NCBI GenBank assembly: GCA_015059065.1
Contig: SVBE01000002.1
Span: forward strand, 94,835-158,834
DNA from: Erysipelotrichaceae bacterium
GTDB lineage: Bacteria; Bacillota_I; Bacilli_A; RFN20; CAG-826
Direction: 5' to 3'
Length of the DNA stretch: 64,000 nucleotides
Shown one piece after another: positions 16,901 to 63,442 of the stretch; positions within the stretch are counted from its first letter, which is position 1, and each line of letters opens with the position of its first letter. The translations under genes were made by a program, and so were the position numbers. A model generated the notes under the pieces. The model made no database searches. It saw nothing but the letters and a program-made list of their open reading frames with translations, and was not told the origin of the DNA.

Positions 16901-17002
16901 TTCGGAGAAGTGGTTAACGGCGACGTTAACACCGATCACCACTCCGGCGACAAGCACCATGCCAATTGTTTGTATGATTTTTGATAATTTACCCTTTTTC
17001 AT
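13979..17002 (-). CDS. GH3 glycoside hydrolase with reversed (circularly permuted) domain order and TM helices at both ends
   Basis: 1007 aa. N-terminal TM (IGMVLVAGVVIGVNVAV). Sandwich domain (VVVIARAGGEGQD), YPFGYGLSYTSF plus an Fn3-like domain. Only then the catalytic barrel (NIHRSPFDGRNFEYYSEDP, KHFVVNETE, GSVLTDY). C-terminal TM (WIWIIVGVDAVAVIGLGIWVYFCYF) plus a K-rich tail. Confidence 0.85.
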   Translation of the reverse strand: MKKGKLSKIIQTIGMVLVAGVVIGVNVAVNHFSEIISIYLGGFGADFSQFDSSAGNNMCQEIESEGVVLLKNDGVALPLTNKNEKGKIPIALFGWGATDGGFITSGSGSGGSAERGSGKLVTLLGALEGQPAMTRDGKETLPEVKGQFEYYHPLMDMYSSYKAGRDRGDYWNAAYPFFNLIEPTVDKVQPHIAGAKEFSNTAVVVIARAGGEGQDIPRIQKKFESNLDDYSRTYLDISKEEEDMLNLVKENFEKVVVIIDACNAMNLSFLDDPKIDAAISISGAGQSGAVAIADILSGKINPSGKTVDTYAYDFSTAATFANAPDCREINGEKGGIRKYTNSDQVYVDYAEGIYNGYRWYETADAEGFWNSEYAKTRWGVEGYDQVVQYPFGYGLSYTSFTQEILSISPADNSYITPESEIKVNVKVANTGTVAGKEVVQLYFNPPYTLGGVEKSAVNLVSFAKTGLIAPGASEEITLTFKGSDMKSYDTENKSGVVGEDGGYVLEAGEYDISLRSDAHNVIDEFHYFVDASSAIEADVVHNRFTGSNVTKGDVSIDGRDTNEGITYLTRNNFKDTFPAPRAARARSDKMPADGWLPTDADTDVMPTQGKAGDYRLYKDGNNLNEELVLRLGKDYDDPLWDEVLNQVTVDELYGVIQGGGFRTKAVNSVGKPEHLDLDGPSGLNQEINAGGSSTPVFWTSFPIETAIAQTWNEDISLRFGLTMGYEAYVTGVAGWYAPAANIHRSPFDGRNFEYYSEDPLLSGKMCAKTIEGATDNGLYCYLKHFVVNETENKREGLLTWLNEQSLREIYARSFEITVKEGGANAIMSAFNRLGATWCGGNYGLLTGILRDEWGFRGSVLTDYALDWEMGFMDIDQGIRAGNDMWLNGLRSDTIGTIRDRGSATSVTAARKATKNMLYTFCNTMYRQSEYLKNPVKDAPASTLVGKTSPSAAKTWIWIIVGVDAVAVIGLGIWVYFCYFHKKKDKKAKTGQPVEEVTPDNNNEKQSE

Positions 17003-21067: not shown

Positions 21068-21107
21068 TTTGATACCTCCAAAATTATTAATGATTTTATT
21101 TATATAT

Positions 21108-21863
21108 TCAGCTGTTCGCTGGTATATACGCGAAATATTTATAATAAGCGGATACTGGAAGCGTGCCATCGATGAATCTTCCCGCCCATAAGTCATGTCC
21201 AGTGACATTCCATAGATTCATCATGATGTGCTGCGGATGAGTTGGAATCTCTTCTGTTGCCGTATGCACTTTCACTCCATCGACGTACCAGGAGATTGAA
21301 TCTTTGTTCCATTCAAAGCCATATTCATGGAATTCCTTTGAAGCATCGAATCCAAGGTTATAGATGTATTCATGTCCACCTTTTCCACTCGTGTAATAAT
21401 TGAACTGTACATGCGTCGGATTGTTTCCTAAGAATTCGATATCGATTTCATCCCATACAGGGTTACGGGTGTAAGTGAAGAAAGATGAGATAACCCCTGG
21501 ACAATAAGCGGCTTTCATATTGACCGCATAATATCCGTAATGGAAACTCATTGCTCTAGAACGATATTCCATGCCGTAGTATCTATCTCCTTGTTTATAA
21601 AGAGTAGATTTCATGCTGCCATCGACGAGTTGACCAGCTTCATTAGACCAATAACACATGAATGGATCGCTGTTTTTATAGCCATTCGCGAAGAAGAATT
21701 CATCGGAATAGCCTTTAGAGAAATCCACAAGATAATCTTTTGGGTTCACTAATTTACGTTGTTCACCTTCTTGAGGAACTACTGGTCCCCCACTAGGTGT
21801 GCACGCAGATAAAAGCCCACATAGAAAGATTAATGGCGATGTTTTGGTCAATAAAGTTTTCAC
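21108..21863 (-). CDS. GH16 beta-glucanase lipoprotein (laminarinase/lichenase type)
   Basis: 251 aa. GTG start. Signal plus lipobox LCGLLSAC. Catalytic WDEIDIEFLG (nt 21432-21449). Ends with a TGA stop. Confidence 0.9.
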   Translation of the reverse strand: MKTLLTKTSPLIFLCGLLSACTPSGGPVVPQEGEQRKLVNPKDYLVDFSKGYSDEFFFANGYKNSDPFMCYWSNEAGQLVDGSMKSTLYKQGDRYYGMEYRSRAMSFHYGYYAVNMKAAYCPGVISSFFTYTRNPVWDEIDIEFLGNNPTHVQFNYYTSGKGGHEYIYNLGFDASKEFHEYGFEWNKDSISWYVDGVKVHTATEEIPTHPQHIMMNLWNVTGHDLWAGRFIDGTLPVSAYYKYFAYIPANS

Positions 21864-21927: not shown

Positions 21928-23298
21928 TTATTTTGTCGTATTGTCGGTGAGTATTATCGATAAATGGAAGACGTTATTAGAGGTCGAAATCGACATCTCT
22001 CCCCCGTATTTTCTGGCGATAATCTTAATGCTTCTAAGACCAAAGCCGTGGAAGTTTTTATCTTCCTTTGTGGTCTCTGGCAAGTCATTATTAAATTCTA
22101 ATTTTTGATGATAATAATTGTCTTGATCTATAAAGATCATGTTCCCTCTTTTACGCGTGGAGATGTTGATGATTCTCTGCTTTTCATCTTTGATATTCTT
22201 TACCGCTTCTAAAGCGTTATCGATGATATTACCAAATAGACAGTAGAGGTCACCACTATCCATGAATTCAAAGATCGTCCCATCAACCATACAACCAAAG
22301 TTGATATTATTCTGTTTGCAGAAGGATGATTTCTCCCATAAAAGGACATTCAACATTTGATTGCCAGTATCTAATTTAGAATCATAGATATTGACCGATT
22401 CTTCTAGTTTCTTCAACTCTTCTTGATTGAAGTTACCCGTGCTCGCTAAAGAACGGATTTGATATTTGATGTCGTGACATTTGATGTTAATCATATCAAT
22501 CGTATCTTTAGATATTTCGTATTGCTGTTTGGACTGTTTAATCGTGTGTTCAAGATATTCCACTTCGTTCGTTAAATGGTTTTCTTTAATCGCTTTAGAA
22601 GATAAATATAAGACGAGGACGCAGGAAAGAATGGATAACAGATTTCCACTTTGTCTAAGAAGGAGTAATGTCCCGTTATCGAAATGATGTTCCCTGCCCG
22701 TGGACATATTCTTGAAAGCGATATCTTCAAAAGAACAAAGGACGACAGTAGTCAATAAACAAAACATCGTCACTAATAATATTCTTTTGCTAAATACCCT
22801 ATCGCTTAAGCTCTTATGGAAGAAGAAACGGAACACTAAAGCGGTGATCACTATCATTATCACAAGGAATGAATAATAGATGATGTGGTAGATGAGATTA
22901 TAATTATCTCCCCAGGATAAATCCCAGTCATTATTGACCATAAAGACGAATAAGATAAGCCACACTTTATAGACGATATTTTGAATCGCATAAGCCACTC
23001 CTAAATAAAATATCACTGGGACAAACTGTTCGTTGACGACGAATTTTGTCGCGGGGATAAAGGCCGCGAATAAAGTGAGATAGACAAGCACTCTGCCCCA
23101 TAATGTATCGCCGAAATAATAATAGAAGAATGATAGACCAAATCCGATTATGAGAACAAATAATAAAGCGAGGAAGAATCTACCAATAAATCTTTCTTTT
23201 TTGTTAAAGAAATAAAAGACGACAACGATAAAAGCCCCGAGTTCAATGATGAATTCTAAAATCACTTGAACAAAGATTGCTAAAACATCTTGTATCAC
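21928..23298 (-). CDS. Sensor histidine kinase, AgrC/LytS-like. Paralog of 1796..3082
   Basis: 456 aa. GTG start overlapping the regulator stop (TAGTG). About 6 TM helices. HDIKYQI. GHKL motifs NIIDNALEA and HGFGLRSIKIIARKYGG. Confidence 0.85.
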   Translation of the reverse strand: MIQDVLAIFVQVILEFIIELGAFIVVVFYFFNKKERFIGRFFLALLFVLIIGFGLSFFYYYFGDTLWGRVLVYLTLFAAFIPATKFVVNEQFVPVIFYLGVAYAIQNIVYKVWLILFVFMVNNDWDLSWGDNYNLIYHIIYYSFLVIMIVITALVFRFFFHKSLSDRVFSKRILLVTMFCLLTTVVLCSFEDIAFKNMSTGREHHFDNGTLLLLRQSGNLLSILSCVLVLYLSSKAIKENHLTNEVEYLEHTIKQSKQQYEISKDTIDMINIKCHDIKYQIRSLASTGNFNQEELKKLEESVNIYDSKLDTGNQMLNVLLWEKSSFCKQNNINFGCMVDGTIFEFMDSGDLYCLFGNIIDNALEAVKNIKDEKQRIINISTRKRGNMIFIDQDNYYHQKLEFNNDLPETTKEDKNFHGFGLRSIKIIARKYGGEMSISTSNNVFHLSIILTDNTTK

Positions 23299-24005
23299 TA
23301 TTTCACCCCACTATACCAATTGGCGAGTTCTTCTAAGAATATCTTCTTTCGTGGACGAGAGATGAGTAAAACTGAACTCCCAACAGTGAGTTCTAACCCC
23401 TCAATCTTTGATATATAATTTGGATTAACTAAATAGCATTGATTGCATTTTAAAAATCCATAATCTTTAAGCTCTTCTTCCGCTTTAGAGATCGTTCCCG
23501 TCACTTCAATCACTTCATCGACTAGGTGGTAATATAAGCGATGTCTAATCACTTCGACAAACATCAGTTTATTCGTGGAGATATGATATATCCCTTTACC
23601 GGCTTTCACTAAATAATCTTTATCTTCATTTAAAGAATATAAGGATATTGCTTTCTTGAATTTTAATGAGAAGTCAAAATACTGCACTGGTTTAATGAGA
23701 TAAGCCACCGCATCTACTTCATATCCCTTCTGCGCGTATTGAATCAGATTAGTGACAAATATAATCGAGCATGACTTATCGATTTTACGAAGTTCACCAG
23801 AAGCTTCAACCCCATTCATATTCGGCATTTCCACATCTAAAAGGACAACCGCATAGATCGGTTTATAATCCTTTAAAAATGAAGTCGCATCATGAAAACG
23901 AACGACATTATATTCTGTATGTTCTTTTTCGGAAATGTTAATGATAAAAGACTGTAAAAGTTTTGCATCATTATCATTATCTTCAACAATAGCAATGTTA
24001 TACAT
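23298..24005 (-). CDS. LytTR-family response regulator. Paralog of 3083..3802
   Basis: 235 aa. REC (VVLLDVEMPNMNGVE) plus a LytTR C-terminal domain (LMFVEVIRHRLYYHL ... ISRPRKK). Confidence 0.85.
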   Translation of the reverse strand: MYNIAIVEDNDNDAKLLQSFIINISEKEHTEYNVVRFHDATSFLKDYKPIYAVVLLDVEMPNMNGVEASGELRKIDKSCSIIFVTNLIQYAQKGYEVDAVAYLIKPVQYFDFSLKFKKAISLYSLNEDKDYLVKAGKGIYHISTNKLMFVEVIRHRLYYHLVDEVIEVTGTISKAEEELKDYGFLKCNQCYLVNPNYISKIEGLELTVGSSVLLISRPRKKIFLEELANWYSGVK

Positions 24006-26862: not shown

Positions 26863-28446
26863 TTATTTCAAAACGATATCGTTGTTGTTGTTTTCAACTT
26901 CTTCAATATTTTTTTCTTTAACAACTTCTTTTTTATTGTCCTTAATATCGTTTGCTTTTTCTTCGACAACATTAGGATTTGTAATCGCAGGTTCTTTATG
27001 TGGTGGATAACCATTGAGGAGTTCACTATCGATTTCCTTGAAGATTTGATCTTTCTCCTCTTTACATTGGTCGCATGTCGCGATGATGTCATCAGCGAAC
27101 TTCATTCTTTTATCGTCAACGGAATTGCCGCGACCAGTATAGCCTTGTCCTGCTTTTCTTGTACGATAATTAACCGCAGCTTCTCTAAGTTTATCTTCAT
27201 TTAAATAATCTTTATGACGAGGATCATTGAACTGTTTATATGCTTTCATCAAATAATCGTATTGGGCAGAATTTCTACCAAACCATCTGGAGAACCAACT
27301 CGCTTTTAATTTTTCTTCACATTTATCAGGATCAATTGATGGGAGAGTAGTCTTTTGTTGTAGTCTTTTTCTCCATTCATTTGCATATTGATATGAGGCA
27401 TCAAAACAGATGAGTTGGATGCGTTTGATTTCATCTGGTGTTCTTGGTTTTAAGATATATTTGACATTTTCTTGTTCGTGACCGATGAGGTTGTTATCAA
27501 ATGAGCCATCGACATCTCCTAAAGCAACAGGGAAGAAATCTCTTAACGCAATTTCTTGTTCATAGCCATTATAATTATCTTTCTTCATTGGCTTATAGGC
27601 CATGATTCCTCCTTTGGAGAAATCTGCGCCTTTCTTCTTCATGTTTTCAAAGACTGTAAACATGTCTTCTTTTCCTTCGATAAGTTTATTTTGAACCATC
27701 GTCATATAAGTCTTATTATTTGGTTCTTCGCTCATGAAGTCACCGCATTTGAGCATTAAGATTTGGGCTTGTGGAGCATCGATTTCTGGGAACGCGAAAT
27801 AGTCTATCGAGGAAGCAATCTCAGTATATTGCTTATCAAGACCACCGATTAAATTAGTGAGTTCTTCAATAGAATTTTTAGCGTTTTTCATCCCATCTGT
27901 CATATCGACATGAGTAAAGGCGTTACTATATTCAAATGCATCTTTAATCGCGCGGTAATTCTTCTGATAATACTCCGCGAGTTTTAGTTTGTCGCCTTTG
28001 CAGTCTAAGATGTCTTGAGGATTGAGTTTCATCACATCCTTATAACGGACATAGGCGAGCTTATTAGGATAATGAAGATAATCTTGGTAAACCTTTTCGT
28101 TATGGTCTTGCGCATCTTTAGTGTTATCTGTTCTAAAGAAAGTAGAGACATTGCGGTCAAACGGATTTTTATTGTTTCCTGTAGACTTGCCGTATTTATC
28201 GACCATGTCTTTATAGATTTTTTCTTGCTCTGCTTTAATTGCCTTTGCTTCTTGACCGATGCGATAAACAGCAACTTCTTTTGGATCATTGAGTCGATCT
28301 TTAAGATTCTCATCAAAAGAAACTTTCTGTCCAGGAGGAAGAAGTTTATTGAGTTTATTCACTAAATCTCTATGTCTTGCGATAATCGCTTCTTTTTCTT
28401 CTTCTGTTAATGGTGGATATACTTTTACTTCTACTTTGTTTGGCAT
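26863..28446 (-). CDS. Hypothetical protein, 527 aa, K/E/D/N-rich, no recognisable domain
   Basis: Long uninterrupted ORF with its own terminator. No signal peptide, TM helix or catalytic motif that I can identify. Low-complexity acidic/basic C-terminus. Confidence 0.6.
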   Translation of the reverse strand: MPNKVEVKVYPPLTEEEKEAIIARHRDLVNKLNKLLPPGQKVSFDENLKDRLNDPKEVAVYRIGQEAKAIKAEQEKIYKDMVDKYGKSTGNNKNPFDRNVSTFFRTDNTKDAQDHNEKVYQDYLHYPNKLAYVRYKDVMKLNPQDILDCKGDKLKLAEYYQKNYRAIKDAFEYSNAFTHVDMTDGMKNAKNSIEELTNLIGGLDKQYTEIASSIDYFAFPEIDAPQAQILMLKCGDFMSEEPNNKTYMTMVQNKLIEGKEDMFTVFENMKKKGADFSKGGIMAYKPMKKDNYNGYEQEIALRDFFPVALGDVDGSFDNNLIGHEQENVKYILKPRTPDEIKRIQLICFDASYQYANEWRKRLQQKTTLPSIDPDKCEEKLKASWFSRWFGRNSAQYDYLMKAYKQFNDPRHKDYLNEDKLREAAVNYRTRKAGQGYTGRGNSVDDKRMKFADDIIATCDQCKEEKDQIFKEIDSELLNGYPPHKEPAITNPNVVEEKANDIKDNKKEVVKEKNIEEVENNNNDIVLK

Positions 28447-32601: not shown

Positions 32602-33063
32602 CTATTCAATTTTAATTGATATCCTTTTACCAAGAGCATTGAATAATCTTTCTATTTTAGCAATGGTTGGATTTCCAATTCCTCTTTCTATTCTCGATAT
32701 ATCTCCTTGATCAATATGAGACATCTTAGATAGTTCAGTTTGAGTAATGCCTAATGACTCTCTAGTCTCCGCTAATAAGACGCCTAAACTTTGATTCATT
32801 GGAACATCAATTTGCCCAACAAGAACACCATCATAGTAAATGGCAGTAGCATCAATATCTAATTGATCATTCCAAATAACCCCATATCCTCCAGGATCTA
32901 ATTTGCCATTTTCAAATAACGCTCTATTTAATAAAAGTTCTTTAAACTGAGGGTATTTTGAAAATAGTTGAGACAAATCATATTGGATAATCTTGCCATC
33001 TTGAAATGTCAATTCAACAACAACACCTTCTAAGAATTTAACTTTGTTAGCGTAATAAAACAT
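32602..33063 (-). CDS. DUF2442 domain fused to a C-terminal XRE-type HTH. Orphan paralog of 62984..63442
   Basis: 153 aa. N-terminal DUF2442 pattern (VVVELTFQDGKIIQYDL...YPQFKEL...GYGVIWNDQLDIDATAIY). C-terminal HTH (LGITQTELSKMSHIDQGDISRIERG). Confidence 0.7.
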   Translation of the reverse strand: MFYYANKVKFLEGVVVELTFQDGKIIQYDLSQLFSKYPQFKELLLNRALFENGKLDPGGYGVIWNDQLDIDATAIYYDGVLVGQIDVPMNQSLGVLLAETRESLGITQTELSKMSHIDQGDISRIERGIGNPTIAKIERLFNALGKRISIKIE

Positions 33064-45991: not shown

Positions 45992-46669
45992 CTATGCTTC
46001 GAAAATAGTGTTTTTGGTGCCTTTATAATATGCTTCTACTGCTTTTATGTGATCAGGAGCAAAAAGAGGCGGTATTTCTTCCTTAGAACAGAATTTAAGT
46101 TCAGATGACTCTTCATCTATTCTTAGGTCACCTCCCTCTATCTCAAACACATAATACGCTCCAATGGTGTGTGCTTTATCACCGTTGCCCCACACCATAT
46201 TTTGATTATGGAATATACCGAGAAAATATTTGGGTTTAACATCTAATCCTGTCTCTTCTTTTATTTCACGAATAGCAGCTTCCAAATATGTTTCATTGAG
46301 TTCCAATAGTCCACCAGGAAGTCCCCATTTATTGTTATCAGTTCGATGTTGGAAAAGAATCTTCCCATCTTTTTCAACTATTCCACCCGCGCAATTAAGG
46401 ATGATTTTTTGGTCACCTAAATATTTTCTTATTCTTTTAACGTAATTTTTATCATCATAAATCTTCTTTTCTAGAAAAAGCTCGTTTGCATCAATGTTAA
46501 ATTTATCAATTAATAATGCAATCTTGTCATTGCTCATTTCTGTTTCGCCCTTTTCAATATGGGCAATCATGGATTTATCTTTATAGCCAAAAATCTGTGC
46601 AAATTCTAATTGAGTAAGATTATTCTTTTTACGAATTTCTTTTATCTTTTTACCAAAATGAAGACTCAT
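45992..46669 (-). CDS. XRE-type HTH fused to a NUDIX hydrolase domain
   Basis: N-terminal HTH (IRKKNNLTQLEFAQIFGYKDKSMIAHIEKG). Nudix box GLPGGLLELNETYLEAAIREIKEETG. I prefer the ATG at 46669 (MSLHFGKK) directly after the RhuM stop. The track start at 46693 is a TTG inside the RhuM gene. Confidence 0.8.
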   Translation of the reverse strand: MSLHFGKKIKEIRKKNNLTQLEFAQIFGYKDKSMIAHIEKGETEMSNDKIALLIDKFNIDANELFLEKKIYDDKNYVKRIRKYLGDQKIILNCAGGIVEKDGKILFQHRTDNNKWGLPGGLLELNETYLEAAIREIKEETGLDVKPKYFLGIFHNQNMVWGNGDKAHTIGAYYVFEIEGGDLRIDEESSELKFCSKEEIPPLFAPDHIKAVEAYYKGTKNTIFEA

Positions 46670-46670
46670 A

Positions 46671-47666
46671 CTATTTGTTATCCTTTTTCTCAATTAATAG
46701 GAGTTCATTAAAATGAAGAAGCATTTCTTTTTCATTTTCCGTAGGATTAACAAATAGCCTATTTCTAAATGCATCGTATTCTTTTCTCGCATGTTCTAGT
46801 GCATCTTGATGGGAAACTAATCCCGGTCCATTTAAGATGTCCTTTCTTGTCATAGTTAAGAAATAGTCCAATTCTTTAATCCAGTCGTTCATCGTCATCA
46901 CGTGTTCTTCAAGTGCTTGTAATTCTGCAAAGTCGAGATATAAAGAAACGATTCTATTTAATATATCCATCTCTTCTTTAGATAGATAATTTTTAGCCAC
47001 TACTGCATCTTCCAACAAAGGATAATCACCATTAAATGAAGTTAACCCCATGAAGTCTTTTGAAGCATCTGCTCTTTCTTTGATGATTTCTGCAGTAGTA
47101 TGTCCATGAGCGGCCCAATGCATTTTATTTTGCACAGTCGAAAAGAACTTGTAAGCAACTTCTGATTTAGGGTCATAATCTGAACTAGTTGCAAAAATAT
47201 CGAGAACTTGTCTCCAAAACACCTTTTCACTGCTTCTAATATCGCGGATTCTCGCTAATAATTCTTTAAAATAACGTCCGCCACCCGCTTCTTTAAGGAG
47301 GTTATCATTAAGGGCAAAGCCTTTAGTCATATATTCTTTTAGTGTTTCAGTTGCCCACTTTCTAAAGTTTGTACCTATATTACTTCTAACTCTATAACCA
47401 ATAGCGATAATCATGTCCAAGTTATAATGATTAACGTTACGTATCACTTCACGTTCACCTTCATTTTGAACTATTCGGAATTTCCGAACAGTTGAGTTTT
47501 CATCTAGTTCGCCTTCGTCCAAAATGTGTTTGATGTGTTCAGAAATATTAGATTTGCTTGATTGATATAATGAAACCAATTGATCTTGAGTCATCCAGAC
47601 ATTATTATCAATTAATTTAACTTCAACATTGTTATTATAGATAATTACCAAACCTTTTTCGTTCAT
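46671..47666 (-). CDS. RhuM-family protein
   Basis: 331 aa. VWMTQDQLVSLYQSSKSNISEHIKHILDEGEL ... VNHYNLDMIIAIGYRVRSNIGTNFRKWATETLKEY is the hallmark RhuM N-terminal region. Confidence 0.8.
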   Translation of the reverse strand: MNEKGLVIIYNNNVEVKLIDNNVWMTQDQLVSLYQSSKSNISEHIKHILDEGELDENSTVRKFRIVQNEGEREVIRNVNHYNLDMIIAIGYRVRSNIGTNFRKWATETLKEYMTKGFALNDNLLKEAGGGRYFKELLARIRDIRSSEKVFWRQVLDIFATSSDYDPKSEVAYKFFSTVQNKMHWAAHGHTTAEIIKERADASKDFMGLTSFNGDYPLLEDAVVAKNYLSKEEMDILNRIVSLYLDFAELQALEEHVMTMNDWIKELDYFLTMTRKDILNGPGLVSHQDALEHARKEYDAFRNRLFVNPTENEKEMLLHFNELLLIEKKDNK

Positions 47667-49156: not shown

Positions 49157-50810
49157 GTATCCCTTTCCCCAATTTCAAAGAGACTCATACCTCTCATTAA
49201 ACGGAGAATGGGACTATAAAATTAGTAAAATCGATGCAATTCCTAAAGATTTTGATGGGAAAATCATCGTTCCTTTTTCTCCAGAAACGGAGATGAATAA
49301 AGATATCAATCACATCCTTCAACCAGATGAATATCTCTTCTATAAACTCGTTTTTAATCTAGAAAAATCATTTATCAAAGATGAGGTCTATCTCCACTTT
49401 TTAGGAGTGGATCAAATCGCGGACGTCTATCTAAATGACCACTATTTAGGACATCATGAAGGTGGCTACCTTCCCTTTAAATTTGAAATCAAAAAATATT
49501 TAAAAAATAAAGACAATATCCTTGTTGTCAAAGTGAAGGATTATACCGATACTTCTTATCTATCTAGGGGTAAACAAACAATGGAAAGAGGAGGGATCTG
49601 GTATACCCCTCAATCTGGGATATATTTTCCCGTCTTTATGGAAAGCGTTCCCACCCTCCATGTTGATAAGATTAAACTCACTCCTGACATCGATAAAAAT
49701 GAACTCATCGTCAACGTCACTTCTAAAGCAGATAAATGCCTAGTTGAACTCGATAACAAATCATTAGAAATAGAGACTAATAAAGATATCCATATCCAAA
49801 TCGATAATCCTCATCTATGGTCCCCTGATGACCCATATCTATATCCTTTAAAAGTTAAGATTGGAGAAGATGTTATCTCTTCCTATTTTGCGATGAGAAA
49901 ATTCTCTATCATCAAAGATAATAAAGGCAAATTAAGAACAGCCTTAAATAATAAACCAATCTTCATGAACGGTATCTTAGATCAAGGCTATTACAAGAAG
50001 GGATTACTAACTCCCACTAGTTATGATGACTATATCAATGACATCGAACTAGTAAAGTCTCTTGGCTATAACACGATTAGAAAGCACATTAAGATTGAAA
50101 TCCCCCGTTGGTATTATGAATGCGATAAAAGAGGAATGATCGTCTGGCAAGACTTCATCAACGGAGGAGGAAGTTATGAATTCAACACAATTACTCTTCC
50201 TCTATTCACTCATATTCATAGCAAAGATACAAAATATCAAAAGTTCCATCGTGAAAATGAAAAGGAAAGAGAAACTATAATCGAAGAATTTAAATCCATC
50301 ATCGATTATCTCTATAACTCACCATGTATCGGCTTATGGACAATATTCAATGAAGGCTGGGGACAGTTCGACGCGAAGAAAGTCTTAAAGATTATGCAGG
50401 AGATAGATAATACGAGAATCTATGACCACGCTTCTGGATGGCACGACCAAAAAGTCGGTGAGACTAAATCATTACACGTCTATTTTCAACCTGCGATTAT
50501 GCCGCTTAATAAAAAACGCTGCATCATCATCTCTGAATATGGAGGGCTAGTCTTCCCTATTGAAGGCCATATGATGGAAGGAGATTCCGTCTATAAAAAG
50601 TTTGAAGATAAAGAAAAGTATCTAAAAGCCTTTAAGAAGCTCATTAAGCGAGATATCGTAAGAAATATCAAAAAAGGTCTTTCCGCGGCTATATACACCC
50701 AATTAAGCGATGTAGAAGAGGAAACAAACGGATTCGTCACCTTCGATAGAGAAGTTGTTAAGTTTGATGTAGATAAAATAAAAGAGGTCAATGACCTCAT
50801 TCATCTATAG
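49140..50810 (+). CDS. GH2-family glycoside hydrolase (beta-galactosidase/glucuronidase-like)
   Basis: 556 aa. Sugar-binding domain (YLNDHYLGHHEGGYLPFKFEI), barrel with NTIRKHIK, acid/base FNEGWGQ, nucleophile region IISEYGG. Confidence 0.75.
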   Translation: MPYLTEYPFPQFQRDSYLSLNGEWDYKISKIDAIPKDFDGKIIVPFSPETEMNKDINHILQPDEYLFYKLVFNLEKSFIKDEVYLHFLGVDQIADVYLNDHYLGHHEGGYLPFKFEIKKYLKNKDNILVVKVKDYTDTSYLSRGKQTMERGGIWYTPQSGIYFPVFMESVPTLHVDKIKLTPDIDKNELIVNVTSKADKCLVELDNKSLEIETNKDIHIQIDNPHLWSPDDPYLYPLKVKIGEDVISSYFAMRKFSIIKDNKGKLRTALNNKPIFMNGILDQGYYKKGLLTPTSYDDYINDIELVKSLGYNTIRKHIKIEIPRWYYECDKRGMIVWQDFINGGGSYEFNTITLPLFTHIHSKDTKYQKFHRENEKERETIIEEFKSIIDYLYNSPCIGLWTIFNEGWGQFDAKKVLKIMQEIDNTRIYDHASGWHDQKVGETKSLHVYFQPAIMPLNKKRCIIISEYGGLVFPIEGHMMEGDSVYKKFEDKEKYLKAFKKLIKRDIVRNIKKGLSAAIYTQLSDVEEETNGFVTFDREVVKFDVDKIKEVNDLIHL

Positions 50811-51413
50811 CTCTTCTTCACTAGAGCCATTTACAATATTGTTATAATAAATCACTAAATCGTTTTCATCGATGGCATCTGGATAAGTATCTATCAGCTG
50901 TTTTAATTCGCTTAATTTCACAGCCTGATATTCTTCATATCCATTGATGACATTGACTTCACTAGCTCGTGTAAACACGGTTAATGAATAGATATCAGTT
51001 CTAAGAGTAGAGACATTGCTTAGGTCTTCAATATCTCGTTTATTAGAGAACATTGGATTCTTTAAGACATATTCATCGTGAGTCTTATTGAGCCAGTTCT
51101 CTTCGTTGACATCGCCGTTAACGATACCTTCATTTGCTAAAACATAAATGATGAACAAACCTTTTCTAGATAAAAAGAGGCAGTCATAACTAGATTTATT
51201 TAATTTCACGTCAATAAATGTGTATTCAGAGATGTGACGGATATTATCAAGATATTGGATCACTGCTTGTTTAGGATTAGTTTCAAGCATATCTTTTTTC
51301 TTTTCTGCTTGCTCTTTTGCTTCTCTTTTACGGTCTCTTTTCCCAAGCAAAATAGCGATCGTAATGACAATCACCATAAATATCGCTGGAAAAATAACTA
51401 AAAACCAAAGCAT
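50805..51413 (-). CDS. Membrane-anchored NERD-like (nuclease-related domain) protein
   Basis: 202 aa. N-terminal TM (WFLVIFPAIFMVIVITIAILLG) and a K/E linker. The core YDCLFLSRKGLFIIYVLANEG...N fits the NERD pattern. Weak, made by eye. Confidence 0.45.
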   Translation of the reverse strand: MLWFLVIFPAIFMVIVITIAILLGKRDRKREAKEQAEKKKDMLETNPKQAVIQYLDNIRHISEYTFIDVKLNKSSYDCLFLSRKGLFIIYVLANEGIVNGDVNEENWLNKTHDEYVLKNPMFSNKRDIEDLSNVSTLRTDIYSLTVFTRASEVNVINGYEEYQAVKLSELKQLIDTYPDAIDENDLVIYYNNIVNGSSEEEL

Positions 51414-56595: not shown

Positions 56596-56751
56596 ATAAA
56601 TAATTGTATGTGTTTTTTATTGCAAATAAAATGCGAATCATAACTATAACTTAACTTTTTTATAATACTCCCACAGGAGTAGTAATCAATATATAGCATA
56701 TTTATTCTTGCCACATAATGATAGAATGATATTTAAAGTGAGGGCTATTTT

Positions 56752-58833
56752 ATGAAGAAGAAATATTTATCAACTTTGCTCATTCCTTTTTTATTAAGTG
56801 GTTGTAATAACGCTCAAACAACATCTAGTGAACCAACAACAAGTGAACCAACCACTTCTAGTGAACCCATCAGTTCATCAGAAGAAGAACTTCCTTTAAC
56901 TGTTAATATCATCATGGCCGCGGCTACTGTCCCACCTGTAATGTCTGCTTTAGACTCATTAGCAAATAATGGTAGAACATATGCCTTTATTGAAAGAGGT
57001 AAGACATATTCAGGTATTGAAGAAACTTCTTTTATCAATATTGGTTTTGATCCGACAGTGAATAACGCAAGTGGGGTCACTAATGCGAACTTTGTGACCA
57101 TCACTAATTATGTCAAAGAAATCTATAAAGATATGCCTAATGCCCACTATAACTTCTATACCGTGGACTATAAGCCATGGGCCCCAGTAAAAGTCGCTAG
57201 TGATGTGAAAATGAATAAAGATCAATTCACTGTCTTTATGGTGGAAGATGGCACCGCCACATATCAATATGCCGAAAGATATTATCAATCATCATTTAAA
57301 ACTCAGTCCGCTTTAGATGATTATTATGAAATGCAAGTAAAAGAAGCTTATGACTTATTTGATAAAGCGATGTTAGATTCTTCTAATATTGACGATATCA
57401 AGAATTCCTATGTCAATGGTTATCATCATACCTTCGCCTTAGTGAATCATCCCAACTTTGTGCACCTCGTTCAAGATAAGGTCAAATTAGGGGCGAAATT
57501 AAGCAAACACCCTAATAGCAAGATCAATCAATTATATGGCCTTAACGGCGGTATCATTCCTGGACATGTAAGATATAAAAGCATCTCTGAAAGAGTGAAT
57601 GACCTATCTAGTGAAGATCGCGCAGAATATCTTAAACTCATGTTTGGTGAATACGAAGAAGAAGCGGAAAGATTATTAAATAGAACAACATTAGATGATA
57701 AAACAACATCTGTACCTAATAAGAAATTAATATTCATTGGAGGTAGAGTCCGTCAGTCCAGCGCGAATCTTGTTCCTACTATCCCCTGGGATGATATCCC
57801 AACTAGCTATAACGATATCACTCCTGAACTGCATCAGGTGTTCTTAAATGAGTCTGATTATAAATTTGTCATCGACTATTTAAATGATGTTAATAATTAT
57901 GAAGAATCATGGAAGAATGCTGATCAATCCATCATTGATAAAATAAAAGAAAAAGCTTTCCGTTATTATATTGATTATACATATAACCTTAAGATCACTT
58001 ATCGCTTATATGGAGATGAATACGATGTCTTATTTAAAGGTCATCCTGCGGAGACATTTGACGCTCCTAATAAATGGGGTGGATATAATGTCACAGTTGG
58101 GGAAGTAACATATAACTTCAATCTCTTCATGCACGATTTAGCCTATCAGTTCCACTCCCTTGATAGTGAAGGTAAATATGTTGGAGTCCTCCCAGGTGGA
58201 GTCGCGGCAGAAAACCTCGCCTATTTAGGTGTAGATACATATCTATGTGGATTAGCATCTTCCACCTATACCGGATATGAAAAATCATCCCCTATCCTTT
58301 ATGTCCTCAACAATACAAATGATGATATCAGGGGTGATATCGCGATTAACCAAAGATATATCGATGATGAATTAATCTGGGAAAAAGATGATGAAACAAT
58401 TGAAACCATCTTCCTTAACTATGGTAACCGTTATAATGTATTAAAAGATTATTATAAAGAATTATCAGATAATTCCACTGATCCTAAAGATAAAGAAGAC
58501 TTCTTAGTAGTATCTAATAATTATCAAACGAGATTCAACGACTGGGTGAAAGCTACCTCTCTTGTCACTTCTCCAGAAGGAGCCTCTATCGATAATATTG
58601 GTAGAATCATCTTCACCAATAAACAGATCATCGAATTAAGAGAAGGATATCTTAGTAAAGTTGATACTTATATCGCGAATAAAGATATCGCTTCATTAAG
58701 TGAAGAAGATCAAGAAAATATCACCTTATTATTCCATGAAGCAAAAGCAACAATTTATAGCACATTCGACTTATACGAATTAAATAACGCGTTTACCGAC
58801 TTACAAAGCAAGGTCAACGAATACTTCAACTAG
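56752..58833 (+). CDS. Lipoprotein with a GT80 (PmST1-type) sialyltransferase-like motif set
   Basis: 693 aa. Lipobox LLSGC and an S/T/P/E tether. The ordered motifs are MVEDGTATY, KKLIFIGG, LFKGHPAE, VAAENL and GLASSTY. These correspond to the DDG, HP, Glu and Ser-Ser elements of Pasteurella PmST1 as I recall them. Confidence 0.45.
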   Translation: MKKKYLSTLLIPFLLSGCNNAQTTSSEPTTSEPTTSSEPISSSEEELPLTVNIIMAAATVPPVMSALDSLANNGRTYAFIERGKTYSGIEETSFINIGFDPTVNNASGVTNANFVTITNYVKEIYKDMPNAHYNFYTVDYKPWAPVKVASDVKMNKDQFTVFMVEDGTATYQYAERYYQSSFKTQSALDDYYEMQVKEAYDLFDKAMLDSSNIDDIKNSYVNGYHHTFALVNHPNFVHLVQDKVKLGAKLSKHPNSKINQLYGLNGGIIPGHVRYKSISERVNDLSSEDRAEYLKLMFGEYEEEAERLLNRTTLDDKTTSVPNKKLIFIGGRVRQSSANLVPTIPWDDIPTSYNDITPELHQVFLNESDYKFVIDYLNDVNNYEESWKNADQSIIDKIKEKAFRYYIDYTYNLKITYRLYGDEYDVLFKGHPAETFDAPNKWGGYNVTVGEVTYNFNLFMHDLAYQFHSLDSEGKYVGVLPGGVAAENLAYLGVDTYLCGLASSTYTGYEKSSPILYVLNNTNDDIRGDIAINQRYIDDELIWEKDDETIETIFLNYGNRYNVLKDYYKELSDNSTDPKDKEDFLVVSNNYQTRFNDWVKATSLVTSPEGASIDNIGRIIFTNKQIIELREGYLSKVDTYIANKDIASLSEEDQENITLLFHEAKATIYSTFDLYELNNAFTDLQSKVNEYFN

Positions 58834-58868
58834 TAAAAGGAAGGGGAATTATAATCCCCTTCTTTCAT
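58804..58868. repeat. Direct repeat, copy 1 (last 30 nt of the 56752..58833 CDS plus its terminator hairpin)
   Basis: CAAAGCAAGGTCAACGAATACTTCAACTAGTAAAAGGAAGGGGAattataaTCCCCTTCTTTCAT. Repeated at 60606..60668. Confidence 0.8.
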
Positions 58869-58903: not shown

Positions 58904-60211
58904 CTATCGAATAAATTCTAAAAGAAAATCTGCCAAACCAATGATCGTGTAATTTTGCTCATCTTTCACTTCAGGTAATGGGCGGTTGATCACTAATACT
59001 TTTCTTGCTCCATCATTAACTTTAGTAAATGGCTTTATCTCTCTGTTTTTGGTTTCTTTATTATTCACATCTGCGGCTACTTGAAAATAAAATGCTTGAT
59101 TGCCTCTAGTGGCATAAAAGTCTATTTCATAATTAACCCTGATGGTCTTTCCATCTTTGTTTTTTTCAAAAGATTCAAATGTTCCCACCGTCACATTGTA
59201 GTTATTGTAGATAAGTTCATTGTAGATAATATTTTCCACTACTTTGCCCTCATCGAAGAATGTAAAATCCTCTTTAGCGTTTCTAAGTCCGATATCATTA
59301 AAATAATATTTTCTAGTTGAACCAATAATATTTTTCCCTTTTAAATCAAATCTATTAACTTCATCAATCAACATCGAATCTTTAAAAAAACCAATATATT
59401 TATTAACTGTATCTTTATCAATCTTTTCATGTTTAATGCTCTGATAAGTATTTGCAATTCTTTCTGAGTTGAGTAAATCGCCAGTGCAGTTACTTAATAT
59501 TTTGCATAATTCATCTAGCGATTCTGTTTTTGTTATTTTGTTATGATCGATAATATCTTTGAAATATGTCTTTTCAAATAATTTCTTAAGATATTGTTCT
59601 TTTTCTTCTTTAGGAAGAATAACCGCTAAAGGCATACCACCATGCATCATATATTCCATCAGCGCATCATTTTTTGAACCACCAACGTATTTATAAAATT
59701 CATAAAAAGATAAGGGCCTCATGTGAATTTCTGTTGCCTTATCTCTAAACTCTGTCGCAACATCAACCGACAGCATTTTCGAATTGCTTCCAGTAACATA
59801 TAAATCGATGTTGGGCTCTCTAGATAACCCAAGAACAACCTCAACAAATGAAATTACATTTTCATCTTCTTCTTTAGCTACTACTATTTCCCCATTTGTT
59901 AGAACTGGATTAATGATTTTATATACTCGTTGTATTTCATCTAAAAACACATAGCATTGCTCTTTATTATTGCACCACTCACGAACAAATGAACCTAATT
60001 TAATAGGATTTAAAAGCTCTATATTTTTATCATCGTCTAATTCGATTATTAGAATATTGCTTTTGTCCACTCCTTCCTTGATTAAATAATCTTTATATAT
60101 TTCGGTCAGCAAATACGATTTCCCACATCTTCTAACACCAGTAATGACTTTGGGAAAACCATTGTTTTTATTGTTTATAAGTTGGCTAAGATATTTGTTT
60201 CTAGAAATCAT
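58904..60211 (-). CDS. AAA+ ATPase with a DUF4143-type C-terminal domain
   Basis: 435 aa. N-terminal pattern KYLSQLINNKNNGFPKVITGVRRCGKSYLL (Walker A), Walker B YVFLDEIQ. Architecture typical of the COG1373 family. Confidence 0.75.
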   Translation of the reverse strand: MISRNKYLSQLINNKNNGFPKVITGVRRCGKSYLLTEIYKDYLIKEGVDKSNILIIELDDDKNIELLNPIKLGSFVREWCNNKEQCYVFLDEIQRVYKIINPVLTNGEIVVAKEEDENVISFVEVVLGLSREPNIDLYVTGSNSKMLSVDVATEFRDKATEIHMRPLSFYEFYKYVGGSKNDALMEYMMHGGMPLAVILPKEEKEQYLKKLFEKTYFKDIIDHNKITKTESLDELCKILSNCTGDLLNSERIANTYQSIKHEKIDKDTVNKYIGFFKDSMLIDEVNRFDLKGKNIIGSTRKYYFNDIGLRNAKEDFTFFDEGKVVENIIYNELIYNNYNVTVGTFESFEKNKDGKTIRVNYEIDFYATRGNQAFYFQVAADVNNKETKNREIKPFTKVNDGARKVLVINRPLPEVKDEQNYTIIGLADFLLEFIR

Positions 60212-60755: not shown

Positions 60756-61760
60756 TTATTCTTTGTTTGCTTTTTTACGATAGACGAGGGCTTTAATCAA
60801 AGCGACTACGGAAACAATAAGTGGAGTGAAGACAATGATTAAGGTAGCAATATTGACACTCGCGGCAAACGCCACAGGAAGAATACCAAATCCTCCGTTG
60901 CTCGGCGCGTCCATATTCGTCCCTAATCCAACCATATAAAGCACGATAGATATCGCTGAACATATAAGTGCAGCAATCGCTATTGGTAATAAGAATGCTT
61001 TCTTATTCTCTTCTTTTAATTCGTTATAGTAGAATTCCCAGCTTCCTAAGAAGACGACATTCACAAAACAGACTAATAGAAAAGCAAAGCCATAGAAGAA
61101 ATATTCATGACGGAAATCATAGATGAATAAGCCAAGCCAGAAACAGGAGAAGGAGAATAATACCACAAGGAGCCAGAAGCTCATGAATGTGCAGTATAAT
61201 CCTCTCGCTTTAGTGACAATTGGTCCACGAGACGGAACAACATAAGGAATCTTATCTTGTAATTTCTTTAAATAGACTAAGCCAAATATTCCTAATGCCA
61301 CATAAACTAGAGAGAATAAAATCGAATCTAATGGATATAAAGGAGAAGGTGAACCTTCCACTAGAGAACGGAATTTACCAATCGCTAAACCGATGATGAT
61401 AAATAATAGATTCACACCGGCAAAGACTAATAAAGTAATCGCATTCTTCTTTATCGATTTGTTACGTCTTTCTTCATTTACATTGCGGAATAAGCCGTGG
61501 GCTAATAATACACCCCAAATGCTCATAAACATCGACATCACGATAGGGAAAGATCTTGTGATCTCTTTAATCGCGACATCAATAGAGCCACTGACTACCG
61601 CTCCTAAGGAATCAGTGATCGCATAAACAGCATTAAAGAATGTAAAAGAAGCAAAGATAAATAGAACGATTAAAACTAGACTAATAACTAAGGATTGGAG
61701 TTTTTGTTTTTTATCACAGGAAGAACAGATGAAGCTGTCTTTATTAAAATATTTATTCAT
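60756..61760 (-). CDS. Polytopic membrane protein of unknown function
   Basis: About 8 TM segments. N-terminal CSSC. Start set at ATG 61760 (MNKYFNK), which overlaps the upstream stop as TAATG. Confidence 0.6.
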   Translation of the reverse strand: MNKYFNKDSFICSSCDKKQKLQSLVISLVLIVLFIFASFTFFNAVYAITDSLGAVVSGSIDVAIKEITRSFPIVMSMFMSIWGVLLAHGLFRNVNEERRNKSIKKNAITLLVFAGVNLLFIIIGLAIGKFRSLVEGSPSPLYPLDSILFSLVYVALGIFGLVYLKKLQDKIPYVVPSRGPIVTKARGLYCTFMSFWLLVVLFSFSCFWLGLFIYDFRHEYFFYGFAFLLVCFVNVVFLGSWEFYYNELKEENKKAFLLPIAIAALICSAISIVLYMVGLGTNMDAPSNGGFGILPVAFAASVNIATLIIVFTPLIVSVVALIKALVYRKKANKE

Positions 61761-62896
61761 TACCATTTCACCCATCTAACAAAATCGCCAGAAGTCCTTT
61801 CGTTATAATATAGATGTTCTAAATCAAATTTGCCTAAGATGTTATCTTCACTATCTGTGATGGTCACTAATGCGGCACCGATCAAATCAAATTTCTCATT
61901 AATACCAACAGAAGCTAATCCTTCTTTCATTGCTGCATCAGTGCTATTTGGATCGATATGGGCATAATATAATTCTTGTCCAGTTTTCACACCTAAACCA
62001 ACGACCAAACCATCCCAATCAACAGTCCAGTCATTATTATGCGCGTGACCCATAAAAGCGCCTTTTAAATTATGTTCTTTCGCGACATCAAGGAAGTCAG
62101 AAGCATAAGCTTCATTACCGTTATCCGCGAATCTTTCAAGTTTAAAGAATTTGTTCTTATAGGAAGCGCGATTATTATATAAAGTAGTATTCTCATCTTG
62201 AGGGATATGATAATAAGCAATACCAGGGACAGACTCTCCCACTAAAGTGTGTTCTTTAAGCCACCAATCAGTTTGGTCTTTTCTAATATAATCATAATCT
62301 CTAAATGGAGAAATGCTTGTTTCAGAGAAAGATGCACCTGAATCTAAATTAGCAATCTGCCATTTCACCTCATTACCTTTAACGAGATTGATCATAAAGT
62401 TACTACGGCCGTATAGATTATCTTCAGGTTCATAATAATAACAATGAGGCGCGTTTTTAAACTGTTCTCCTAACCAATTAGGATTATATATTCCGTGTCG
62501 GTCATGGTTACCCCAAATCGCTGTATAGATAAAGCCGTATTCACTAGCCTTAGCTTCAAAATAGTCAACAAAGGATGAGACGTGATAAGCATTAGATAAC
62601 ATGAACATATCCCCAGTGAGTTCCACTAGATCAATCTTCGCGTTATTACCTTGTAACTCTTTGATATGACGATCAGTCTCTTTAAGCACTTTATCCATAT
62701 AAATCTTAGATTCATGTGTCGATGAATTCATACTCCAGTGGATATCAGTTAACTGCAAGATGTTGAAGTTTTGATGATAATCCATTTGAAAAACATAATC
62801 TTTCAAATGATCTTTATAATCAAAAGTCGCCCCACTACATCCGGTGAGCAGAAGTGATAAAACTGGAAGTAAAATGAACAATTTATTAGCTTTCAT
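61760..62896 (-). CDS. Metallophosphoesterase lipoprotein (calcineurin-like)
   Basis: 378 aa. Lipobox LLLTGC. Motifs LQLTDIH, TGDMF, GNHD, GHAHNND. Confidence 0.85.
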   Translation of the reverse strand: MKANKLFILLPVLSLLLTGCSGATFDYKDHLKDYVFQMDYHQNFNILQLTDIHWSMNSSTHESKIYMDKVLKETDRHIKELQGNNAKIDLVELTGDMFMLSNAYHVSSFVDYFEAKASEYGFIYTAIWGNHDRHGIYNPNWLGEQFKNAPHCYYYEPEDNLYGRSNFMINLVKGNEVKWQIANLDSGASFSETSISPFRDYDYIRKDQTDWWLKEHTLVGESVPGIAYYHIPQDENTTLYNNRASYKNKFFKLERFADNGNEAYASDFLDVAKEHNLKGAFMGHAHNNDWTVDWDGLVVGLGVKTGQELYYAHIDPNSTDAAMKEGLASVGINEKFDLIGAALVTITDSEDNILGKFDLEHLYYNERTSGDFVRWVKW

Positions 62897-62983: not shown

Positions 62984-63442
62984 CTACAGCATTAACGAAG
63001 CAACAGTGCGTCCAAGGGATTTCGCTATCTTTTGTAATGTGCTCAAAGTCGGATTGCCTTTGCCTTGTTCAATCTTAGATATTTCTGCTTGCATAATGCC
63101 TGTTTGAGATGACAAATCTCTTTGACTCATTCCCTTTTCTTCTCTCGCCTCAGCAATTGCTTGGCCGACAATCATCCTTATTTCTGGGTCAACTTTACCG
63201 ATATGCTTACCGCGCACATAAATGCCATCACTAGATAAATCCAAGTCATCGTTCCAGCTGATTCCATACCCAACTCCATCAATCTTAACAGAAGTAAATA
63301 ATTCCAAATCCTCTAATGCATGAAAAACAGGGTATTTATCAAACATTGTTTTAACATCAAAAGAAACGACTTCACCATCCGCGAATGTCGCGATTAAAAC
63401 CAAGTCGTCCTTTGTTTCAATTTTTGTAATGATTCTGTGCAT
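62984..63442 (-). CDS. DUF2442 domain fused to a C-terminal XRE-type HTH
   Basis: 152 aa. DUF2442 pattern (LVLIATFADGEVVSFDV...YPVFHAL...GYGISWNDDLDLSSDGIY). HTH (KGMSQRDLSSQTGIMQAEISKIEQG). Confidence 0.75.
   Translation of the reverse strand: MHRIITKIETKDDLVLIATFADGEVVSFDVKTMFDKYPVFHALEDLELFTSVKIDGVGYGISWNDDLDLSSDGIYVRGKHIGKVDPEIRMIVGQAIAEAREEKGMSQRDLSSQTGIMQAEISKIEQGKGNPTLSTLQKIAKSLGRTVASLML

Follow-up and report, generated by a model that had tools for sequence, protein, structure and literature searches.

The stretch of DNA analysed here, hereafter the window, is 64,000 nucleotides (nt) long and comes from contig SVBE01000002.1 of the Erysipelotrichaceae bacterium assembly GCA_015059065.1 (positions 94,835 to 158,834 of the forward strand). 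An open reading frame (ORF) at 56752..58833 on its plus strand encodes a protein of 693 amino acids (aa), which an earlier reading of the sequence (the original prediction) had described as an outward-facing lipoprotein carrying the motifs of glycosyltransferase family GT80, the bacterial sialyltransferases typified by PmST1 of Pasteurella multocida, amid glycan-degrading genes. The ORF was present as claimed, its product is represented in public data by an identical protein cluster (P0001) from 6 contigs, and no paralogue of it was found within the window. The comparisons described below indicate that the product is very probably an exported enzyme of GT-B fold, related to GT80 and GT38 and with an intact active site. 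It belongs to a separate, unannotated family inside the GT80/GT38 sialyltransferase lineage. The gene and the parts of its product are located as follows (evidence in brackets).

56752..58833, plus strand: gene for the 693-aa GT80-like surface lipoprotein (ORF list; the end includes the stop codon)
56752..56805, plus strand: predicted lipoprotein signal peptide, aa 1-18, with the lipobox L15-S16-G17-C18 (sequence; weak match to Pfam LPAM_1)
56806..56892, plus strand: disordered tether rich in S, T, P and E, aa 19-47, NNAQTTSSEPTTSEPTTSSEPISSSEEELPLT (composition)
56899..57711, plus strand: N-terminal Rossmann-like domain of the GT-B fold, about aa 50-320 (AlphaFold secondary structure, Foldseek, hhalign, conservation)
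57238..57264, plus strand: D/E-D/E-G motif MVEDGTATY, aa 163-171 (hhalign register with PmST1 LYDDGSMEY, D140-D141-G142)
57604..57648, plus strand: motif LSSEDRAEYLKLMFG, aa 285-299, beyond those listed in the original prediction (hhalign against PmST1 LTPEQQAFYLTLVGF)
57721..57747, plus strand: KKLIFIGGR, aa 324-332, the strand and loop that open the C-terminal Rossmann domain (hhalign with PmST1 AKFIFTGTT)
57754..58011, plus strand: family-specific, mostly helical insertion of about 85 residues, about aa 335-420 (hhalign gaps; model)
58021..58053, plus strand: HP motif YDVLFKGHPAE, aa 424-434 (hhalign with PmST1 YKIYFKGHPRG, H311)
58057..58185, plus strand: second insertion of about 40 residues, aa 436-478, beta-hairpin and helix (hhalign gaps; model)
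58189..58230, plus strand: nucleotide-ribose motif LPGGVAAENLAYLG, aa 480-493 (transitive alignment of LPGGVAAENLAYLG to IPGQIPMEVIIWAY to IPANISFEVLMMTG)
58246..58278, plus strand: SS (phosphate-binding) motif CGLASSTYTGY, aa 499-509 (hhalign with PmST1 GGVASSLYFSL, S355/S356)
58420..58830, plus strand: C-terminal helical extension of about 135 residues, aa 557-693 (model)

Fold, homology and catalytic motifs

The structure of the protein was modelled by AlphaFold on a 51-sequence alignment (predicted local distance difference test score, pLDDT, 89.5; predicted template modelling score 0.83), and the model was searched against the PDB with Foldseek. In agreement with the likeness originally claimed, GT80 structures came on top at E values of the order of 1e-10, namely those of Pasteurella dagmatis (4v2u, E 1.4e-10; 4v38, E 1.9e-10; target TM about 0.61), and were followed by the GT80 enzyme of Photobacterium phosphoreum (2zwi, E 2.9e-9) and the GT38 polysialyltransferase 5wcn (E 9.7e-4). 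Generic GT-B enzymes such as UDP-GlcNAc 2-epimerases and GT1s ranked below both families. The identity of the protein to the GT80 structures was about 10-14%. Neither a TagF-like CDP-glycerol transferase nor a periplasmic-binding-protein fold was among the significant Foldseek matches.

Homology was also assessed by comparing profiles with hhalign. The family gave a local match of only 42 columns with the single PmST1 sequence (100% identical to PDB 2ex0_A), and a match over 341 columns, which is the whole catalytic domain, with a GT80 profile of 24 database sequences that all contain PF11477 (E 3.4e-5, probability 72%). A bridge between the two was provided by a second tier of proteins that the family profile picked up at E ≤ 1e-7. 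These tier-2 proteins (P0200, P0216, P0212 and P0253 among them) are the closest relatives outside the core family and are compact lipoproteins of 400-470 aa, some longer, which carry the same motif set as LLEDGxGSY, ITGTS, KPHP, PxEAIxW and GGYxSSLYM (EDG or SDG variants); they differ from the core family in being without both insertions and the C-terminal extension and in being much closer to GT80. The hidden Markov model (HMM) that we built locally for GT80 scored many of them at 30-61 bits, and P0212 passed PF11477 (41 bits, cut-off 25) while P0253 passed PF07388 of GT38 (27.7 bits, cut-off 23.3). The alignment of the window family to tier 2 had a probability of 100% (E 2.8e-48) and that of tier 2 to bona fide GT80 a probability of 99.7% (E 3.5e-25). 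Reversed-alignment controls scored about 15 (E 0.55-0.8), as against 50.5, 384 and 196 in the real comparisons. These results together support well that the catalytic body of the protein shares a common ancestor with the GT80 and GT38 bacterial sialyltransferases in both fold and sequence, and the motif likeness noted originally was thus found to reflect true homology.

In the strict sense, the assignment to GT80 did not hold. PF11477 (PM0188) gave no match to the window protein even at E ≤ 10 and was not one of the 25 families with the most matches when 51 members were scanned, the local GT80 HMM gave the protein 8.2 bits, and the TGTT motif is replaced by IGGR. PF07388 did not match the window protein at its gathering threshold either; sub-threshold matches were seen in 9 of the 51 members (best E 0.002), which makes it the most frequent weak Pfam match of the family. 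The protein is therefore not filed as a GT80 member, given the missing PF11477 match, IGGR in place of TGTT, the two insertions, the C-terminal extension and the family-specific invariant residues. The family can best be described as a Gram-positive, surface-anchored and structurally elaborated branch that lies far out in the lineage of bacterial sialyltransferases.

Conservation was counted in 140 members of full length (median identity to the query 33.5%). The motif positions first reported were exact (MVEDGTATY 163-171, KKLIFIGG 324-331, LFKGHPAE 427-434, VAAENL 484-489 and GLASSTY 500-506), and E165, K325, H431-P432, E487 and S503 were kept at 97-100%, which is beyond chance at this divergence. 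The N-terminal domain, which by analogy would form the acceptor and sugar side, has R82 (aligned with PmST1 R63), T85, D139 and Q241 as family-conserved residues. Within it, V164-E165-D166-G167-T168 pairs with Y-D140-D141-G142-S143 of PmST1, the Tyr position being V, C or I in the family. The register claimed for this loop was correct and E165 was invariant (140/140), with G167 in 138/140 and Y171 in 139/140, but D166 was not invariant (120/140). The invariant acid of the family is thus the first residue of the D/E-D/E-G motif and not, as in GT80, the second. Further downstream, the pairing of LSSEDRAEYLKLMFG with LTPEQQAFYLTLVGF was recovered by hhalign both against PmST1 alone and against the GT80 profile, and Y293, L294, L296 and G299 were invariant in the 51-sequence alignment. 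ATVPP of the family and ASLPA of PmST1 were also in register.

In the C-terminal domain, KKLIFIGG aligned with KFIFTGTT as proposed, but the TGTT motif itself (PmST1 T241-G242-T243-T244), invariant in the 24-sequence GT80 alignment, was not retained: its place is taken by I329-G330-G331-R332 in the window protein and by the consensus I-G-[STAG]-R in the family, and the Gly alone is kept (K325 140/140, G330 126/140, R332 132/140, the last being family-specific). F428-K429-G430-H431-P432 is identical to FKGHP of PmST1 and in register with it; D425 was found in 140/140 members, K429 in 139/140, and H431 and P432 in 138/140 each. The ribose Glu was misplaced in the direct family-GT80 alignment because of the 436-478 insertion, and the transitive alignment through tier 2 resolved it, confirming E487 as the counterpart of PmST1 E338 (E487 137/140, N488 137/140, P481 132/140). 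The counts in the SS motif were G500 139/140, S503 136/140, S504 118/140 and T505 129/140; the distance from Glu to Ser is 16 residues as stated (487 to 503), but does not match PmST1, where it is 17 (338 to 355). In characterised enzymes the second acidic residue of D/E-D/E-G is the catalytic base (D141 in PmST1, E153 in MhPST), the HP histidine stabilises the leaving group cytidine monophosphate (CMP), the ribose 2'/3'-OH groups are bound by bidentate hydrogen bonds from the conserved Glu in GT38, GT52 and GT80, and the SS motif contributes to donor binding (PMC5517516, PMC7540698). The counts show strong purifying selection on the residues predicted to bind CMP and on those of catalytic type.

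The longer distances between motifs had been taken to imply insertions, and two were seen in the alignments and the model, both interrupting the C-terminal Rossmann domain. The first (helices 358-361, 367-378 and 392-420) is missing from GT80 and from the compact tier-2 relatives. The second (strands 446-449 and 452-455; helix 457-470) sits between the HP motif and the ribose Glu, whose distance is 56 residues here as against 27 in PmST1. The C-terminal extension was modelled as helices 557-574, 578-602, 623-642, 651-670 and 674-692; up to about aa 620 it is family-wide, and the final three helices (623-692) are confined to the closer relatives of Bacilli type. Most homologues span query residues of about 52-620 and the family profile ends at position 635. 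Many charged residues are invariant in the family (E81, R82, K84, D139, R311, R332, D369, D471 and K475) and have no counterpart in GT80, except R82.

Compared with GT80 as a whole (PF11477; PmST1 2ex0, P. dagmatis 4v2u, P. phosphoreum 2zwi), the family therefore shares the GT-B fold, export, and the YDDGS-type loop, the LxxEQxxxYLxL helix, FKGHP, the ribose Glu and SS in the same order and register, whereas its hosts are Gram-positive or wall-less gut Firmicutes and those of GT80 are Gammaproteobacteria. GT38 enzymes are cytoplasmic-face capsule polymerases. With GT38 (PF07388; Mannheimia haemolytica PST, 5wcn) the family has in common a GT-B fold with the HP motif, the base loop (D/E-D/E-G) and the ribose Glu (PMC5517516); it differs in its below-threshold PF07388 matches, and the window has no polysialic acid locus.

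Lipoprotein signal and extracellular location

The N-terminus, MKKKYLSTLLIPFLLSGC, consists of a K-rich n-region and a hydrophobic core followed by the lipobox L-S-G-C, in which Cys18 is the predicted lipidation residue, and it agrees with the lipobox pattern [LVI][ASTVI][GAS]C used for scoring. Residues 1-45 had a pLDDT below 50 in the AlphaFold model. The lipobox Cys was kept in 126 of the 140 members, and the rest were mostly alignment gaps, consistent with truncated N-termini. The linkers that follow the lipobox in homologues are of low complexity or collagen-like, and in P0039, P0043 and P0116 (for example L004 8001-10178) collagen triple-helix repeats stand in place of the S/T-rich tether. 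More distant GT80-like relatives (tier-2 P0241, P0221 and P0238) contain a type I dockerin or Listeria-Bacteroides (Flg_new) repeats, so the same catalytic module appears to be shown on several types of extracellular scaffold. The near-universal lipoprotein signals, together with the low-complexity linkers, the collagen-like stalks and the dockerin and repeats of the relatives, make the predicted extracellular location of the family robust, in line with the outward-facing lipoprotein proposed at the outset.

Export had been taken to set the protein apart from GT80, a premise that proved weak. The N-termini of the bona fide GT80 proteins that we retrieved (P0121-P0147) almost all have export signals, which are Sec-type and of the cleavable type in Pasteurellaceae and lipoboxes in Photobacterium, Vibrio, Shewanella and Aeromonas (for example LLSAC|N and LNGC|G); our literature searches found no paper on the lipoboxes of marine GT80 enzymes. 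Since export is already a GT80 feature, the finding of an exported relative is less surprising, and the paradox of an enzyme separated from its cytoplasmic donor applies to the known GT80 enzymes too and is not specific to the window protein. How the donor, CMP-activated N-acetylneuraminic acid (CMP-Neu5Ac), is reached in vivo seems to be a question for GT80 as a whole.

Family distribution and genomic neighbourhood

A word-indexed search with the window protein returned 144 proteins, and an exhaustive search with the family HMM, covering 1.8 billion cluster representatives, returned 263 clusters (50% identity, including the distant tier) at E ≤ 0.001, 61 of them at E ≤ 1e-30. The 76 species-level loci all come from uncultured metagenome-assembled genomes (MAGs) of animal gut or rumen Firmicutes (Erysipelotrichaceae, unclassified Bacilli, Acholeplasmatales, Anaeroplasmataceae, Christensenellales, Oscillospiraceae and Lachnospiraceae), and the best match to the window protein among them has 50% identity. 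No paper on the family and no characterised member was found in literature searches.

Immediately upstream of the gene lie genes for glycoside hydrolases (GH) of families GH53 and GH13 and for an aldose epimerase; elsewhere in the window there are GH2, two GH3, two GH16, major facilitator superfamily transporters, Glf and a GT2. The glycan-degrading genes of the original prediction were thus present, but they turned out to be local synteny of close relatives: the GH53-GH13-epimerase order is kept around a homologue of 65% identity, while homologues at 38-46% identity stand amid housekeeping genes with the synteny gone, and over the 76 loci it is lost. When the neighbours of these loci were clustered by all-against-all BLAST, the recurrent ones were shikimate-pathway genes and a generic ATP-binding cassette (ABC) ATPase, in one Clostridia clade only, which is clade-level synteny and not function. 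Ten individual core and tier-2 contexts were heterogeneous, the tier-2 genes being equally solitary. A conserved gene partner, sought over the 76 loci and the ten contexts, was therefore rejected, and the context gives no functional partner.

At one locus the gene for homologue P0088 (L002 8001-10100) lies between a divergent exopolysaccharide operon and a co-directional gene for a Wzx-type flippase; the operon encodes a ManC-like nucleotidyltransferase, two GT4s, a Gly_transf_sug protein, an EpsG-type polymerase and a DUF4422 protein. It is the sole context seen that hints at surface-polysaccharide modification.

The gene is flanked on both sides by genes of the opposite strand, and the following signals were noted around it.

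56719..56727, plus strand: putative extended -10 promoter element TGATAGAAT (by eye from the sequence)
56740..56744, plus strand: ribosome-binding site GAGGG, 7 nt 5' of the ATG (from the sequence)
58840..58862, no strand assigned: G+C-rich hairpin directly 3' of the stop codon (terminator scan, reported for the minus strand)

A simple sigma-70 scan found no plus-strand site, and the promoter is accordingly given as putative. The hairpin, which is common to the gene and to the convergent gene 58904..60211 on the minus strand, is probably a bidirectional terminator. With its opposite-strand neighbours, the putative extended -10 element, the ribosome-binding site and the hairpin, the gene looks like its own transcription unit.

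Several other features of the window were recorded. Mobile-element-like or defence-like genes stand amid the sugar-utilisation genes at 45992-47666, 50805-51413 and 58904-60211 (a RhuM family protein, a helix-turn-helix (HTH)-NUDIX protein, a NERD nuclease-related protein and an AAA_14/DUF4143 ATPase). The downstream side of the locus of the 65%-identical homologue has WYL and helicase-like genes instead, so this flank looks variable. The 1007-aa GH3 protein of 13979-17002 (minus strand) has a permuted Pfam order, with the GH3 C-terminal domain at 67-357, an Fn3-like domain at 437-514 and the GH3 N-terminal domain at 699-864. The gene for a 1398-aa GH16 protein (17012-21208, minus strand) overlaps the upstream 251-aa GH16 ORF (21108-21863, minus strand) by about 100 nt, and the two are either adjacent genes or one frameshift-split gene. 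LytTR-type two-component pairs (GHKL histidine kinase and Response_reg/LytTR) are encoded at 1796-3802 and 21928-24005 (both minus strand), one of which directly adjoins the GH16 genes. Paralogous small proteins, each with DUF2442 and HTH_3, are encoded 30 kb apart at 32602-33063 and 62984-63442 (both minus strand), the latter adjoining two ORFs without a Pfam match (60756-61775 and 61760-62896). A 527-aa ORF at 26863-28446 (minus strand) had no Pfam match at E ≤ 1e-5.

Proposed activity and competing explanations

The protein is best pictured as a lipid-anchored GT-B enzyme of the cell surface, whose disordered tether would space the catalytic body from the membrane. K429, H431-P432, E487 and S503/S504 of the C-terminal domain would bind CMP or a CMP-activated ulosonic sugar, with His431 stabilising the phosphate leaving group, E487 binding the ribose 2'/3'-OH and S503/S504 the phosphate, and the E165-D166-G167 loop of the N-terminal domain would serve as general base, activating an acceptor hydroxyl for inverting transfer. 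The enzyme would thereby transfer a CMP-activated 2-keto-3-deoxy (ulosonic) sugar, which may be sialic acid, a nonulosonic acid or 3-deoxy-D-manno-octulosonic acid (Kdo), to a glycan on the outside of the cell, or from such a glycan. As the residues for holding CMP and for inverting transfer are retained, this is the most likely activity. Since the donor-site TGTT and several residues of the N-terminal domain differ, the sugar and acceptor may not be Neu5Ac and a beta-galactoside.

Two sources of donor can be considered. The enzyme might use a scavenged CMP-sugar, for which Neisseria Lst is a functional precedent only: this GT-B sialyltransferase with an HP motif works from the outer membrane with host CMP-Neu5Ac, so an external donor can suffice, but it belongs to another family (GT52) and to a Gram-negative pathogen (PMC4324315, PMC4668040, PMC5517516). 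Alternatively, catalytic amounts of CMP might move the sugar from an existing glycoside by reverse and then forward transfer; transfer by GT80 enzymes is reversible with CMP in vitro (PMC7540698, PMC4521712).

A number of observations weigh against such a transferase. Scans with Pfam and NCBIfam gave only weak lipoprotein-signal matches and no family match for the window protein; among PDB sequences, phmmer with the single protein returned chance-level matches and hmmsearch with the family profile returned none; and all database names in the family and in tier 2 are 'hypothetical protein'. The window was found to have no sialic-acid gene, as had been noted originally, nor any gene for nonulosonic acid or for the synthesis of a CMP-sugar; no CMP-sugar or sialic-acid gene recurred beside the homologues in the contexts examined, and CMP-sugar has no established source on the outside of a Gram-positive cell. 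D166, at the position of the PmST1 base, is N in 12 of the 140 members and I in 8; 19 of these 20 are numbered P0021-P0050 and look like one clade, so that either E165 acts as base in the family or the variant group has altered chemistry. With IGGR for TGTT and the family-invariant charged residues, the substrate could also differ substantially from that of GT80. Catalysis itself, the use of CMP as the nucleotide, the nature of the sugar and of its acceptor, and which way the reaction runs are inferred. The chemistry of a CMP-ulosonic-acid transferase is accordingly proposed tentatively, at rather less than even probability, in contrast to the fold, the export and the intactness of the active site, which together we consider very probable; the explanation as a whole is a compromise between the two and moderately probable.

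The alternatives were ranked in falling order of likelihood as a trans-sialidase or sialidase, a neofunctionalised protein, a non-catalytic protein and chance. The first, which we consider unlikely but worth keeping in view, is a physiological CMP-dependent trans-sialidase or sialidase, in which trace or tightly bound CMP would act as a shuttle, taking the sugar off host or dietary glycans and passing it to an acceptor on the bacterial surface or releasing it by hydrolysis for uptake, with no need of a cytoplasmic CMP-sugar. GT80 enzymes do have sialidase and trans-sialidase activities, which result from the reversibility of transfer with CMP-Neu5Ac as a transient intermediate and which CMP stimulates (PMC7540698, PMC4521712). 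The same logic, and that alone, is seen in the trypanosomal trans-sialidases (GH33), surface enzymes that move host sialic acid to the microbe without CMP-Neu5Ac, although these have a beta-propeller fold and an unrelated mechanism (PMC8865650). The extracellular location of the family, its restriction to MAGs from animal gut and rumen, habitats with host sialoglycans, the strict conservation of the CMP-binding residues and the lack of CMP-sugar synthesis genes nearby would all fit. However, in the known GT80 enzymes these are side activities in vitro, and we know of no physiological example; the window has no linked gene for sialic acid transport or catabolism, and the genes that neighbour this one target plant glycans.

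In a more speculative extension, to which we give a low probability, the family would represent surface GT80-derived nucleotide-shuttling trans-glycosylases, in which bound or trace CMP takes a sugar of the sialic acid type or of the type of Kdo or 3-deoxy-D-lyxo-heptulosaric acid (Dha) from a host or dietary glycan and the enzyme hands it to an acceptor, bacterial or otherwise. If true, a Leloir-type glycosyltransferase fold would physiologically be a donor-independent trans-sialidase, and the export signals of GT80 enzymes generally would also be explained.

It is likewise improbable, slightly more so, that the nucleotide-type pocket was kept for a different chemistry, such as the use of another nucleotide- or phospho-sugar donor, a phosphorylase or hydrolase reaction on a plant or microbial glycan, or the modification of the cell's own exopolysaccharide after export. 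This neofunctionalisation would account for the large insertions and the C-terminal helical domain, foreign to GT80, for IGGR in place of TGTT, for the family-specific invariant charged residues and for the variable D166. A dockerin, typical of plant-cell-wall-degrading complexes, occurs in a distant relative, and P0088 lies between exopolysaccharide and flippase genes, but each is a single case. The HP motif is present in beta-Kdo transferases too; yet the conserved residues are exactly those for CMP binding and transfer in GT38, GT52 and GT80 (PMC5517516), and the best structural matches were sialyltransferases, not phosphorylases or epimerases.

Far less probable is a non-catalytic surface protein, that is, a glycan- or nucleotide-binding lipoprotein or pseudoenzyme on a GT-B scaffold. 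A Gram-positive lipoprotein with two alpha/beta lobes resembles solute-binding lipoproteins, and no donor pathway is linked, but residues of catalytic type are kept at 97-100% at about 33% identity across lineages, no ABC transporter partner is consistently adjacent, and Foldseek placed sialyltransferases far above binding proteins. Chance matches of short motifs in a protein unrelated to GT80, for which the missing direct Pfam match and the uninformative PDB sequence searches might speak, have a negligible probability and are already refuted by Foldseek (E 1e-10), by the hhalign chain (2.8e-48 and 3.5e-25) set against the reversed controls, and by motifs that are both in register and conserved.

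The preferred reading of a surface CMP-ulosonic-acid transferase means that sugar-transferring enzymes of GT80-like type may be at work extracellularly in gut Firmicutes. To our knowledge, their Gram-positive or wall-less gut carriers are not known for sialylation, and in commensals, sialylation of the surface or transfer of a related sugar would be relevant to immune mimicry and to foraging on mucin. The finding also sharpens a question about GT80 itself, namely what part an enzyme of GT-B fold, exported but reliant on a nucleotide sugar of the cytoplasm, plays outside the cell. As GT80 enzymes are mainstays of the chemoenzymatic synthesis of sialosides, relatives that have diverged and carry altered residues at the donor site could be of use as catalysts. 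If active, the family probably warrants a family or subfamily of its own among the sialyltransferase-type glycosyltransferases, and it makes the occurrence of extracellular Leloir-type transferases in gut commensals a testable question.

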